Shown piece after piece: positions 13,699 through 62,782 of a stretch of 64,000 nt of DNA; the first letter of the stretch is position 1, and every line of letters starts with the position of its first letter. The stretch comes from Candidatus Latescibacterota bacterium. Its GTDB lineage: Bacteria > Latescibacterota > UBA2968 > GCA-2709665. A program made the translations under genes and the position numbers. The stretch spans positions 3,776,001 to 3,840,000 of the forward strand of contig OZ252100.1 of NCBI GenBank assembly GCA_965248435.1, in the 5' to 3' direction. Under the pieces are notes generated by a model. That model searched no databases. It saw nothing but the letters and a program-made list of their open reading frames with translations, and was not told the DNA's origin.

Positions 13699-13892
13699 CC
13701 GGGTACCGGGAAAGCAAAACACGGGTACCGTAAAGCCGTCGTTCGTGGATCGTTAATCGTCGTTCGTAAAGGCAATAGGCAACCTTCTCCCTTTGAAAAA
13801 GCATGTCCCGCCTGCACCGAGTAGGCCCGGAGGGCCGTATCGAGGTGAGCGAGCCTGTGAGTCGAGGGAGGGGATTGAGGGGGATTTCACAG
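13699..13892 (+). repeat. Family A + TCGTGGA-type heptamers + nested composite repeat
   Basis: ccgggtaccgggaaagcaaaacacgggtaccg; ttcgtggatcgttaatcgtcgttcgt; gcatgtcccgcctgcaccgag...gagggagggattgagggggattt. Confidence 0.85.
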
Positions 13893-17400: not shown

Positions 17401-18614
17401 TGATGGCAATGGGGACCCAAGTATCGATGAAGGTAGACCTCCAGCAACTGAAAGAAGATGGGTTCATCATCCTGCGCGAGGTGATCCCGCCGGATCAACT
17501 CGAGGGGCTGCGGAAAGATTTCGAGACGCTGGTCGATCGGCAGCGGGAGATCTGGGCGCGGGACCGAGAACAGGGAGACCCTCCGGGCGGAGTGTGGGAG
17601 ACCGATCCGCAGCCCCGGCTGAGGGCATGGCAGAACCTGATCGACGAAACGACCGCCGGCACGATGGAGTTCTGCCTGCACGAAAACACGATGGGTGTCA
17701 ACCGTCAATTGATGCAAGCCGAGGAAGCGTCGAACACAGGCATCTTCATGATGTGTAACCCGGTGCGCGACCACGGGCCGGCGAAGTGGCATCGCGACAT
17801 CCATCCGATAGACGAAGGGCCGCTTCGCGGCCTGCAGATCGACCTGCTCGAAAACGCTCCGGGCTATCTGCAGTGGAACATCCCCCTGTATGACGACGAT
17901 GTACTTTGGGTCATTCCCGGAAGTCACCGTCGATCGAACACCGACGCGGAGAACTGCCAGCTGGACGAGGACCCCTGTGTCCCCCTCCCGAATGGCCTTC
18001 AGGTGGAGCTGGAGGCCGGCGATGGGGTGGTGTATACGAATACGATCCTCCACTGGGGCAGCAACTACAGCACCAAGCTGCGCAGAACAGTCCATCTGGG
18101 CTACCGTTCATTCGGCGGCCCGGTCTTTCCCTACGTCCCCGGCTTTGTTCGAGACCTCGGATTCACCCGATATCTGTCGGAATCCGGCCGCCAGCTGTAT
18201 GATCGACTCGCGGCGTTTTATGCGGAGGAGTGCGATACGATCACGTCGCTGCTCCGCGCGATTCTGGACAAGGATGTTGAACCCTTTCAGGATGCGCTTT
18301 CCAGGCTTCACCCTGCTGAACCGGCGCGCATCGTCTGTCTGATTCTGCTCTCGAAACTGGTCTACAAGCTTCGGTTCGGCTCTCACCCGAAGCAGAGAAA
18401 CTATCTGCGGGATTGGTCTCAGCACGAGGTTATCGAGCCTCGTTTTTCACAGGACGAAATCGATACGCTTTGGCAGCGTTTCTCGACGCTGGACGCGAAG
18501 CTCAGGTCTGATGAAGAACAGCATGTCCCGGGATTTCAGTCAGGCCCGATGGAATACGTCTACCAGGACTTACCGGCAGATTTCGACGTGGAGGAGTTCA
18601 TCGCCAGCTGGTGA
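17400..18614 (+). CDS. Phytanoyl-CoA dioxygenase (PhyH) family Fe(II)/2OG oxygenase
   Basis: EDGFIIL, WHRD, LWVIPGSH, AGDGV..ILHWG; start uncertain (17400-17427). Confidence 0.85.
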   Translation: MMAMGTQVSMKVDLQQLKEDGFIILREVIPPDQLEGLRKDFETLVDRQREIWARDREQGDPPGGVWETDPQPRLRAWQNLIDETTAGTMEFCLHENTMGVNRQLMQAEEASNTGIFMMCNPVRDHGPAKWHRDIHPIDEGPLRGLQIDLLENAPGYLQWNIPLYDDDVLWVIPGSHRRSNTDAENCQLDEDPCVPLPNGLQVELEAGDGVVYTNTILHWGSNYSTKLRRTVHLGYRSFGGPVFPYVPGFVRDLGFTRYLSESGRQLYDRLAAFYAEECDTITSLLRAILDKDVEPFQDALSRLHPAEPARIVCLILLSKLVYKLRFGSHPKQRNYLRDWSQHEVIEPRFSQDEIDTLWQRFSTLDAKLRSDEEQHVPGFQSGPMEYVYQDLPADFDVEEFIASW

Positions 18615-59419: not shown

Positions 59420-60272
59420 GTGGCTGCCGAGGCATATCACTATCGCTCGGTCGAGGGCTGGGGTCTGGGTTCCGATGGACGGCAGATGGGCGGCGTCCTG
59501 CCCGACGTCGCCATCGATTCGGAAGATCGAGTCTACGTGACGCGTGCGCGACCCGCCGGCCATTCTGGTCTATGACTGCGAGGGTCGATACCTCACGTCC
59601 TTCGGCGAAATCGTCCTCTCCAATCCACACAACGTCTGGATCGATCCCGCCAATCGACTCTTCTGTGCGGACGTCGAGGACCACACCGTCCGCATCTTCG
59701 ACACAAAGGGCGAGCTCCTCCAGACGCTAGGCTCCCCGAACGAAACCGGCGCGCCCGGAGAGCCGTTCAACAAGCCGACGAAGGCCATGGCGGCGCCTTC
59801 CGGAGCCGTCTTCGTCTCCGATGGCTACGGCCAGCACCGCGTGCATCGATTCTCGCCGGACGGTGAGCTGCAGCTCTCCTGGGGCGAGGAAGGCACGGGA
59901 CCGGGCCAGTTTGCGTTGCCCCACGATGTCTGGGTCGATCCCCGCGATCGCGTCATGGTGACCGATCGGGAGAACGACCGTATTCAGCTCTTCGACGTCG
60001 AAGGTCGCTTTCTCGAAGCGTGGACGGACGTCGAATCGCCCAACGACATCCACATCGACGAAAACGGCATCGTCTACGTCGCCGAGGCACCACGACGCGT
60101 CAGTCTGTTCGACCTCGATGGCCGGCTTCTTGCCCGCTGGGGCGAAGAAGGCGACGGACCGGGTCAATACGTCGACCACCCGCACGGCATCTGCGTCGAC
60201 TCACACGGTGACATCTACGTCACCGAAGTCCCCTGGCAGCCCGACCGCCTCCAGAAGTTCACGCGCACCTGA
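59420..60272 (+). pseudogene. NHL-repeat protein (peptidyl-alpha-hydroxyglycine lyase-like), frameshifted near 59544
   Basis: GTG 59420 with AAGGAGG RBS gives ..EGWG..DVAIDSEDRVYVTR; continues in +1 frame as RDPPAILVYD..PH..; GPGQFALPH, SDGYG, DRENDRIQ. Confidence 0.75.
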
Positions 60273-60290
60273 TGATCCACGAGGCATCAC

Positions 60291-60488
60291 GTGAAGATCG
60301 CGGACATCGAAGTCATCCCGCTCCGCGTTCCCTGGAAGAACCGGGTACCGGGATAGGTAGATAGGTTACAGGGATCTTACGGTTTGGGGGCGACGCTGGG
60401 TCGCCCCGGGAAATCAAAACACGGGTACCGGGTACCGAAGAACCTGGAACGTCATCCAATTGCGGATTGCGGATATCCTGCACGTTAG
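60291..60488 (+). pseudogene. Enolase-superfamily N-terminal remnant interrupted by a family A repeat
   Basis: MKIADIEVIPLRVPW (compare MKIAKIEAIAINVPY at 31432), then repeat 60343-60436. Confidence 0.6.
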
Positions 60489-60507
60489 CAGTGCAGAAGA
60501 GCACACA

Positions 60508-60635
60508 ATGGCGAAGTATCGCGGCGGAGTGATTGGGCTGGGATGGATGGGGTTGCTCTACGATCTTGCGGACCGGATTCCGGACCGCTTCAACGTGGAC
60601 GACGTGGACAGGCCCACGCCCGAGCTTGACATCCA
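60508..60635 (+). pseudogene. Gfo/Idh/MocA-like N-terminal remnant
   Basis: MAKYRGGVIGLGWMG Rossmann start; runs into the 15-mer array, stop at 60699. Confidence 0.7.
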
Positions 60636-60725
60636 CGGAAGGCAGAACACGGGAAGGCAGAACACGGGGAAGCAGAACACGGGAAGGCAGAACACGTGAA
60701 GGCAGAACACGGGGAAGCAGAACAC
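60636..60725 (+). repeat. 6 x 15-bp tandem repeat (GGGAAGGCAGAACAC)
   Basis: Units at 60636, 60651, 60666, 60681, 60696, 60711. Confidence 0.95.
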
Positions 60726-60760
60726 CGCTACAGGGTATCGTAAAGGCCAAAACCGGAATT

Positions 60761-61153
60761 ATGGGAAATATGAAAGTGAGCAGCTATAAGGACCTGGAGG
60801 TATGGAACAAGGGTATCGGAATCGTGGATCACGTATATGATGTCACGTCTCAATTTCCGAAGGAAGAAACGTATGGCTTAGCGGCGCACATGCAAAAGAC
60901 GGCGATATCCGTACCATCGAACATTGCTGAAGGTCATGCTCGACAGCATACCAGAGAGTATCAGCAGTTCTGTCACATCGCGCTCGGTTCGTGTGCTGAA
61001 TTGGTGACACAGTTAACCATCGCAAAGCGACGAGGCTATATATCTGACGAAGACTTCGCGAAATTGGAGGACGAATTGGACCACGAGACTCGAATGCTCC
61101 AGAACCTGATTAGGAGTCTTAAGGATAAATCGAGCGAGGAATCTCAATCTTGA
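60761..61153 (+). CDS. Four helix bundle protein (TIGR02436 / 23S rRNA IVS protein / Avd-like)
   Basis: SYKDLEVW, FPKEETYGL, AISVPSNIAEG, F..IALGS.AE..TQL; visibly lower GC than neighbours. Confidence 0.92.
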   Translation: MGNMKVSSYKDLEVWNKGIGIVDHVYDVTSQFPKEETYGLAAHMQKTAISVPSNIAEGHARQHTREYQQFCHIALGSCAELVTQLTIAKRRGYISDEDFAKLEDELDHETRMLQNLIRSLKDKSSEESQS

Positions 61154-61172
61154 TATCAGGAGAAATGGTTTT

Positions 61173-61204
61173 TCGGACCCCGGACCCCGGTACCCGGTAC
61201 CCGA
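61173..61204 (-). repeat. Inverted heptamer array (family A, opposite strand)
   Basis: tcggaccccggaccccggtacccggtacccga. Confidence 0.85.
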
Positions 61205-61252
61205 GATCAGGCAACAGAGCACTTGTTCTCGGTGATGAGGAGGAGTAAACCT

Positions 61253-62782
61253 ATGAGGCTTCAAATTCCGGGCTCAGAACTGATCGTAAACATCGGAACT
61301 CAGAAGCAGCTGTTTGTTGACGACCACATTATCGAGACGACGCGGTGGATATCGCCGCGGTCTTCCGAGACGGCCAGATATTTGCAGCCACCTGCGCGGC
61401 CCAGAACCGACCTGGATGGCTGGAGCGAGGGCGTCGACCGGATCGAGGGCGATGTCCCGGGGCACCTCGTGAGGGCGACGGCGTTCGTGACCCGAACGGT
61501 GAATCAACCCGAGCGGGTCGAGGGCAATCCGATTTTCAAAAAGGCACAGCCCTGGGAGGGTGATGCGCCGTCGGCCTCCACCGTGATGTACGACGATGGG
61601 CTCTGGAAGATGTGGTACCTCAGCAAGAAACTACCCAGCCCGCCGCATCGATATTCCTGCCTATATGCCACATCTCAGGACGGAATCAGGTGGGAAAGGC
61701 CGGCGCTGGGCGTGGTGAAAGACGATGCGGGCAGGGACACGAACATCGTTCTGGAATCCGGGTGCGGGTCTGTCTTGAAGGATGAAGAGGCGGACCCCTC
61801 CCGGCGTTACAAACTCGCGCTCTCCAGGCGGTCGAAAGAGGGACTGCAGCACCCGATGCTCTACCATTCGCCCGACGGCATCCACTGGACACCGGACCCT
61901 GGGCCGTTCAGCCACAGCCGGGGAGACGAAGTCCTCTCGGTGATGTATGATCCTTTGAGCAAGAAGTACCTGGGGTTCTGCCGAAACGCCTACCCCAAGC
62001 CGGTGCTGGTTCACAGGACCGAGCGGTTCCTCCTCAGGATGCAGAGCAATGATCTGGTTCACTGGTCGATGTCTGAGCCCATCATCGAAAAGGACGACCT
62101 CGATCCGTTCGACTCCGATTTCTACGGCATGAGCGGCGTGTGCTACGAGGGCATGTACCTCGGTTTCGTGAATGTACACCATACGGCTCCCGACACGATG
62201 GATATATGGCTTGCCCACAGCAGAGACAGCTTCCGCTGGAAGCGGCTCCGGAGCCGGCCCTTTATGCCGAGGGGGCCCGAAGGGAGTTGGGAGGGAGGCA
62301 TGGTGATGATGTTTCAGGCACCGATACAGGTGGACGATGAAATCTGGGTCTACTACAGGGGGACCGACGGGTTCCACGATGCGCTGGAAAAGAACAGGTA
62401 TGTCGGGCTGGCAAAGCTGCGCCTGGATGGCTTCGTGTCTATCGACGCCTTTCCGAATGAACACAAGAAAAAACGTGCGATTCAACAGCCCGGAAAGAAT
62501 TTTCCGCCTACGCTTCTTACCAAACCCCTCCATTCACCGGGCAACCGCCTCGTTGTGAATGTGGATGCCTCTGAAGGGTTTATCGAGGCCGAGCTGTTGA
62601 ACGTTGACGGATACGTCATCGATGGATTTTCCAGCGAAGCGTGCGACACCTTTCATGGGGACAGTCTGGCGCACACGTTCATCTGGAATGGAAACTCGGA
62701 TATCGGGGGAGCCCTTCCGGCGAGGATCCGATTCTCGATGAATAACGCGAAGCTGTATGCGTTGCAGATTCCCAAAGAGTGA
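61253..62782 (+). CDS. Beta-propeller glycosidase-like protein
   Basis: KQLFVDD, SQDGIRWERP, SPDGIHW, LRLDGFVS. Confidence 0.72.
   Translation: MRLQIPGSELIVNIGTQKQLFVDDHIIETTRWISPRSSETARYLQPPARPRTDLDGWSEGVDRIEGDVPGHLVRATAFVTRTVNQPERVEGNPIFKKAQPWEGDAPSASTVMYDDGLWKMWYLSKKLPSPPHRYSCLYATSQDGIRWERPALGVVKDDAGRDTNIVLESGCGSVLKDEEADPSRRYKLALSRRSKEGLQHPMLYHSPDGIHWTPDPGPFSHSRGDEVLSVMYDPLSKKYLGFCRNAYPKPVLVHRTERFLLRMQSNDLVHWSMSEPIIEKDDLDPFDSDFYGMSGVCYEGMYLGFVNVHHTAPDTMDIWLAHSRDSFRWKRLRSRPFMPRGPEGSWEGGMVMMFQAPIQVDDEIWVYYRGTDGFHDALEKNRYVGLAKLRLDGFVSIDAFPNEHKKKRAIQQPGKNFPPTLLTKPLHSPGNRLVVNVDASEGFIEAELLNVDGYVIDGFSSEACDTFHGDSLAHTFIWNGNSDIGGALPARIRFSMNNAKLYALQIPKE

Follow-up and report, generated by a model that had tools for sequence, protein, structure and literature searches.

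The four-helix-bundle (FHB; TIGR02436 / PF05635) gene at positions 60761-61153 of the window sits in a decayed cassette, and the feature is real. Our preferred reading, which we hold to be probable, is that the locus is a damaged copy of a repeat-armed FHB cassette that resembles the intervening sequences (IVS) of rRNA genes, spreads as a DNA unit and decays into gene-less runs of repeats, and that local deletion and slippage gave the copy its present form. The window, meaning the whole stretch of 64,000 nucleotides that was analysed, corresponds to G000:C1:3776001-3840000, where G000 is the genome bearing the window (97% complete, with gene calls from our own simple ORF caller); G001 is a sister genome of the same genus, also 97% complete. 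In the layout of such a cassette, a left run of heptamers begins just past the stop codon of the upstream gene, the FHB gene follows, and a second run, inverted, closes the cassette on the right ahead of the next gene. Comparison of loci at the sequence level showed this layout and a specificity of the repeat unit by FHB subfamily. The parts of the window locus were as follows.

60294..60341, + strand: stub of an MR_MLE (enolase-superfamily) gene, 16 codons, cut off by the 96-bp element
60341..60436, + strand: 96-bp dispersed family-A element, consisting of GGGTACC, a REP-like hairpin, a 15-mer and GGGTACC twice
60459..60472, + strand: ATTGCGG doublet, the left-arm unit of the FHB subfamily at C1:778494
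60508..60636, + strand: 5' stub of a Gfo/Idh/MocA gene, 43 codons, assigned by homology and by orthologues in relatives
60636..60725, + strand: six tandem 15-mers (equal to a 45-mer twice), an expanded left-arm remnant that has lost the leading heptamer
60733..60739, + strand: lone degenerate left-arm heptamer GGGTATC, assigned by sequence and retained in allele L131
60761..61153, + strand: intact FHB gene (TIGR02436 / PF05635), starting at 60761 or 60770
61175..61203, - strand: right arm, GGACCCC twice and GGTACCC twice, inverted, with its end about 50 nt ahead of the following start codon
61253..62782, + strand: 509-aa gene with weak glycoside-hydrolase-32-like similarity, downstream of the FHB gene

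The contigs of a sequencing run that possibly stems from the source sample covered the locus and showed 0 differences, which makes an assembly error unlikely; to the right of the Gfo/array junction they extended by only 30 nt, slightly short of the bridging criterion. A preliminary description had recognised the FHB gene as a TIGR02436 member of lower GC content, and this was confirmed: the ORF scored 113.7 bits against TIGR02436 (cut-off 24) and 124.8 bits against PF05635 (cut-off 33.8), had a solved relative in PDB 2GSC (E 6e-23), and had a GC content of 47.3% compared to 56.6% for the genome. The six 15-mers described directly upstream were recovered by TRF at 60637-60725 as 5.9 copies with 89% matches (score 143, or 171 when read as the 45-mer twice) and were the top-scoring tandem repeat of the window. 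Also as described, the right arm was the sole minus-strand cluster among the 16 family-A clusters of the window, and the family-A cores at 13708 and 46591 were both present and matched at 13/15 positions. No Rfam family matched 60250-61300 at the gathering level, and one match was at chance level. In the NHL-repeat gene just upstream (59420-60272), one extra base caused a frameshift near 59546; the base was real in the matching run and missing from a contig of the independent study X6.

A search of G000 with TIGR02436 gave 14 matches, of which 8 were near full length and 6 were fragments. Subfamily A, to which the window gene belongs, comprised five intact copies that were 78-90% identical and two pseudogenes, one of them split by an insertion, and in all seven GGGTACC and 15-mer units preceded the gene and inverted heptamers followed it. 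The composite unit was a 22-mer (7+8+7). Units of their own were carried by three intact but divergent FHB genes, near 778 kb, 2835 kb and 5069 kb, and by another pseudogene, namely ATTGCGG, AATATCG, TGGAGTAA and CGTCGTT. All 9 FHB loci examined were flanked by repeats of 7-8 bases that were also dispersed between genes, and as tandem doublets these units were among the most frequent in G000. The enrichment between genes of k-mers from TIGR02436 flanks had been proposed as a check, and the result agreed with it: 12-mers on both flanks recurred in at least 5 other spacers at 9/9 FHB loci compared to 285/1600 controls, and in at least 10 other spacers at 7/9 compared to 186/1600, where five of the nine loci are kin. 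Because one genome contains four to five FHB subfamilies and each of them has a repeat unit of its own, binding to cognate and non-cognate repeats can be compared within it.

The arms of the four other intact subfamily-A copies paired better than all 200 shuffles each, but those of the window copy paired no better than shuffles (fold z = +1.26); thus terminal inverted repeats able to pair around the ORF were found in 4/5 intact copies of subfamily A, and not in the window copy. For the family as a whole, the arms would pair in an operon transcript and the resulting stem would be cut by RNase III, as in the Coxiella IVS. We further infer that an oligomer of the FHB protein likely binds its own arms, although the window protein is net acidic and its pI of 5.6 gave no positive sign for nucleic-acid binding. 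The five intact copies had 26-53% differences at four-fold sites compared to 2-10% at second codon positions, and at the level of codon comparison purifying selection on the FHB protein was shown. With 1 synonymous and 2 non-synonymous changes between the window gene and its counterpart in L131, this pair says too little about selection. A second, overlapping frame stayed open in 3/19 GC-rich FHB genes compared to 246/2808 controls and is not a general property of the family.

The neighbourhood of subfamily A raised the question of how its copies multiplied. A member of the hydrolase-like family followed 6/7 subfamily-A copies and preceded the seventh. Since all seven copies in G000 adjoin this one paralogous gene family, co-duplication or recombination among paralogues could explain their number, which is a point against the preferred reading. 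The FHB gene could be seen as a passive, vertically inherited passenger, with the heptamer runs as ordinary slippage-prone intergenic repeats (STRR-like) that act as recombination hot spots and the cassette multiplied only with duplications of its neighbour. The mosaic nature of the neighbour genes also speaks for this explanation. The trees of the FHB genes and of the downstream genes disagreed, but the mosaicism of the latter limits what this says about their co-divergence. We regard it as unlikely nonetheless, since different FHB subfamilies carry different units, and further points against it came from sites outside the subfamily, as given below. As a separate observation, the hydrolase-like genes of about 500 aa form a mosaic, expanded family, which in the window includes 61253-62782 and the gene from 62974 onward. 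There are 14 more close paralogues; the close paralogues were 61-71% identical to the window copy, and many were bounded by repeat arms.

The history of the window locus was reconstructed from other alleles. In L131 the FHB gene was 98% identical and was followed by the same downstream gene, but upstream it had the end of a different gene with a stop codon, then GGGTATC and a single 15-mer. A contig from X6, which ends loosely, had the same upstream sequence as L131 with two 15-mers. The only paralogue of this upstream gene in G000, at 47%, was a sulfatase. An 80-bp deletion had taken out the right arm of L131 and that of an X7 contig. In the window, the frame of the Gfo stub continued into the array as pentapeptide repeats and ended with TGA at 60697. 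The full orthologue in relatives had 373 aa (PF01408), with 86% identity across the 43 aa of the stub. It had been reported that the Gfo gene breaks off after about 43 codons where the array starts and that its remainder is not nearby; this held, and the 3' part of the window's Gfo copy was absent from all of G000.

The order of the ancestral locus would have been a sulfatase-like gene, GGGTATC with one or two 15-mers, the FHB gene, the right arm and the hydrolase-like gene. A deletion through 3-5 nt of microhomology would then have joined codon 43 of Gfo to a 15-mer, so that the remainder of Gfo, the sulfatase-like gene and also the leading heptamer were lost, and slippage would afterwards have grown the 15-mer from one or two to six units. 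That the Gfo/array junction arose by deletion and then slippage is likely, because two other alleles, L131 and X6, show an upstream stop codon, GGGTATC and one or two 15-mers. The six 15-mers and the broken Gfo gene are thus likely the outcome of ordinary deletion and slippage and matter little alone.

The preliminary description had instead implied that the six 15-mers and the Gfo break mark an intact element or an insertion, and this part was not upheld. That a cassette was inserted into Gfo, with the six 15-mers as its intact left end, would fit the array beginning exactly at the break, and also the FHB cassettes that were found within coding sequences at other places. However, the cassette is not followed by the 3' part of Gfo, pairing between the array and the right arm was no better than in shuffled sequence, and in the other alleles a gene other than Gfo precedes the cassette and its downstream gene, with a short left arm of 1-2 units. 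Insertion into Gfo is therefore largely refuted and very improbable. The suggested search for an empty-site allele with the window's Gfo copy intact found none in 31 genomes or in the run contigs, where only more distant orthologues continued past codon 43. A stem spanning 60422-61204 had also been put forward; its inverted repeat matched at 16/16 positions and the long fold had z = -3.63, but it used the end of the separate 96-bp element and not the 15-mer array. We rejected it as a by-product, because in other alleles the 96-bp element is not beside the FHB gene.

FHB loci were also compared outside the genus of the window. The set comprised 187 loci from relatives, GTDB genomes and metagenomes, and 162 of these were scored, each having a match, an ORF no shorter than 90 codons and flanks of 150 nt. 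With an alignment score of at least 24 as the criterion, inverted arms were found at 121/162 FHB loci compared to 19/459 control genes. The loci came from many phyla, which argues against a passive passenger; the five subfamily-A copies and many of the 162 scored loci are related and not independent. Among the close relatives, 23 scored loci had 15 direct arms vs 8 inverted, and arms in direct orientation occurred in several FHB clades (L024, L040, L036, L042-L045, L047 and others, relatives of family f1).

The clearest sites were in a DNA-methylase gene (PF01555) of relatives. A cassette was present in one loop in 2/12 copies and 10/12 were empty, among them one from the same genus whose flanks were 91% identical; 12 of 19 new loci were used, and each of the other 7 was either a partial match or the second half of one of these sites. 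No target duplication was found at the methylase insertions. Because filled and empty methylase alleles exist, this comparison shows gain or loss of the gene and its arms as one unit. Such sharp alleles inside a coding sequence are a further point against the passenger explanation. The cassettes, L028/L211 in G023 and L032/L213 in G021, had replaced about 10 loop codons. In the G023 methylase the host frame stayed open across the cassette with an additional 137 codons, and in G021, where the frame downstream was open as well, there was a shift of one base. The register of the right-arm heptamers continued into host codons, and slippage of the heptamers may act as an on/off switch for the methylase.

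How a cassette decays could be seen in G001, where TIGR02436 gave 0 matches. At six loci in this genome a left and a right arm enclosed 50-100 nt from the 5' end of an FHB gene, and several had the same deletion end. At the site orthologous to the stub in L016, G000 has arms only, and this G000 site does not adjoin the hydrolase-like family. Since the L016 stub is orthologous to an arms-only site, this comparison links gene-less arms, at least there, to a former FHB cassette, and an FHB stub at a non-paralogous site is not what a passenger of neighbour duplications would leave. The interiors of gene-less paired arms in G000 held clear FHB sequence in 1/9 cases and borderline sequence in 1. Internally deleted, gene-less derivatives that keep both ends were thus present. 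Judged from sequence, a decay series from intact gene through pseudogene and internal deletion to arms only was shown. The view of the preliminary description, that the FHB locus represents the gene-bearing version of an element with scattered gene-less derivatives, was accordingly supported by the filled and empty sites, the decay series and the arms. The stubs with a nearly common deletion end lay at 18009, 16196 and 4676 in L014, at 12023 in L015 and at 5545 in L016. They share this end though one orthologous locus in G000 has an intact gene, which suggests that a deleted form may have been copied or converted among the cassettes of G001.

The dispersed gene-less repeats were abundant. G000 contained 187 family-A clusters, most of them lone left arms, and gene-less pairs of left and right arms also existed. 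Of the doublet matches, 381/390 were intergenic, and 82/106 sense clusters between co-directional genes started at most 30 nt from the upstream stop. With a stricter motif, 27/110 left arms started 3-7 nt past the stop codon. The family-A 15-mer pattern had 44 matches in G001 and 0, 0, 1 and 0 in four genomes of other genera. Target duplication was looked for at 53 arrays: a perfect 8-mer was found at 1/53, that of the 96-bp element in the window, and for 6-10 nt there was no excess over permutations (p 0.07-0.8).

The 96-bp element and the stub that it cuts off were missed in the preliminary description. The 16-codon stub had 10/13 aa identical with the start of a gene in G019 whose body is MR_MLE. 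An 8-bp direct repeat, GAAGAACC, flanked the element on each side, and the stub/element junction was also present in the X6 contig with 1 difference. The element carries a REP-like hairpin and occurs in 30 copies in the genome. Because 3 copies are identical over 96 nt at unrelated sites, the element appears to have been copied recently without an FHB gene. It is non-coding, with the hairpin nested between family-A heptamers, and its copies include window 60341-60436, G000:C1:2656169, 4536950 and 27 more.

These properties bring in a trans-acting enzyme as a further explanation. In RAYT/REPIN and IS/MITE systems a gene is flanked by inverted repeats and has many gene-less derivatives, and HUH elements show strand bias and no target duplication. 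The arms could be substrates of a RAYT-like HUH/Y1 enzyme that copies arm-bounded DNA at the replication fork, with the FHB gene as cargo. The missing target duplication and the identical copies of the hairpin-bearing 96-bp element would fit, as would the leading-strand preference, which went beyond gene bias: 33/36 near-stop left arms outside 3.6-4.0 Mb lay on the leading strand compared to 62.5% expected (p = 8e-5), with the origin set by GC skew, our own gene calls, and the dense 3.6-4.0 Mb region left out. This bias thus relies on a GC-skew origin and on those gene calls, and under the passenger explanation a general GC skew could account for the placement of G-rich units on the leading strand. 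Although G000 contained 5 matches to Y1_Tnp, 0/5 had family-A arms or the hairpin of the 96-bp element within about 450-500 nt, and plain arms occurred without the REP hairpin. We therefore consider the enzyme explanation improbable. The FHB system also differs from RAYT/REPIN and IS/MITE in that the gene has no transposase domain (profile searches placed no transposase family on the FHB ORF) and that the arms are tandem heptamers, not REP palindromes or IS ends. PDDEXK_3 genes were considered as partners, and none were linked.

Among known systems, the 23S rRNA IVS is the closest. In Coxiella burnetii the IVS has heptamers in strain-variable copy number before the S23p ORF, terminal inverted repeats, excision by RNase III and reductive ORF deletions, according to PMC4990558. 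The cassette is alike in its protein family, in heptamers before the ORF and in ORF deletions, and 4/5 intact subfamily-A copies are also alike in terminal inverted repeats able to pair. It differs in lying between protein-coding genes, in several copies and subfamilies, and in gene-less arms across the genome. The neighbours of the window copy are protein-coding and not rRNA; tandem heptamers before the ORF were found in the paralogues and in other alleles, and the window copy is reduced to one heptamer and 15-mers. The window copy differs from the Coxiella IVS also in having lost the pairing left arm. Members of the FHB family also occur in 16S and 23S insertions of CPR bacteria, as described in bioRxiv 10.1101/2024.02.27.582315. 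The cassette is a widespread and apparently undescribed variant of the ORF-bearing IVS. A literature search, mostly of freely accessible main texts, gave no publication that describes repeat-armed FHB genes other than those in rRNA.

Heptamer repeats themselves have been described before. In Xanthomonas and Nostoc (PMC4692102) and in Beggiatoaceae (PMC4679880), intergenic heptamers lie close behind stops on the sense strand and form convergent inverted pairs. In the portions of these two texts covered by the terms searched there was no mention of four-helix or S23. The G000 repeats are like such short tandem repeats in that they are 7-8-nt tandem units, intergenic and on the sense strand close behind stops. 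They differ from those described in these sources in being tied to FHB subfamilies and in including the 22-mer (7+8+7). That heptamer runs after stops and in convergent pairs were described in PMC4692102, as far as consulted, with no protein is another point in favour of the passenger explanation.

A further known relative is Avd of diversity-generating retroelements (DGR), which is homologous to PF05635 (PMC10053308). Like the FHB protein it has a related four-helix fold, and the profile match was weak at 25.4 bits. In contrast, the FHB ORF fell below the Avd cut-off of 80, and G000 contained 0 matches to the reverse transcriptase family PF00078.

On the preferred reading of a decaying, IVS-like cassette, copies would likely move or be overwritten by recombination between arms, with neither a transposase of their own nor target duplication. 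A more far-reaching version, which we put forward only tentatively, is that FHB cassettes are transposase-free mobile elements. Through subfamily-specific recognition of heptamers on single-stranded arms, and together with fork and recombination enzymes of the host, they would place or overwrite arm-bounded DNA behind leading-strand stops, and would be the source of heptamer repeats in many bacteria and of the ORF-bearing rRNA IVS. Against such self-mobility are the single mosaic neighbour family, the repeats that persist in G001 without an intact FHB gene (a point shared with the passenger explanation), the acidic protein, and the lack of a reverse transcriptase or a linked Y1 gene in G000. 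What the locus offers is a tie between the orphan family S23p/TIGR02436 and the long-unexplained heptamer repeats of bacteria, in a genus that supplies a decay series and allele pairs.

Gene truncation bounded by repeats was considered as a general rule and rejected: 5/62 arrays had a paralogue match compared to 11/456 control gene ends, and because 2 were chance motifs in coding sequence and 2 were length differences in repeat domains, only the window site was left. Another family of repeats lay at most 150 nt past family-A arms in 60/172 cases compared to 112/1381 control spacers, stacked at gene ends. The heptamer family GAGATAC had 266 doublets, and no FHB partner was found for it. Three tandem 175-bp gene-less units of left and right arms, each with a REP-like hairpin, were found at G000:C1:5078508-5079043. 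Long arrays of the 22-mer (heptamer and 15-mer), with up to about 30 units, were found at G000:C1:3898299-3898997, 2145587-2145728, 2183499, 4092057 and 4093086.
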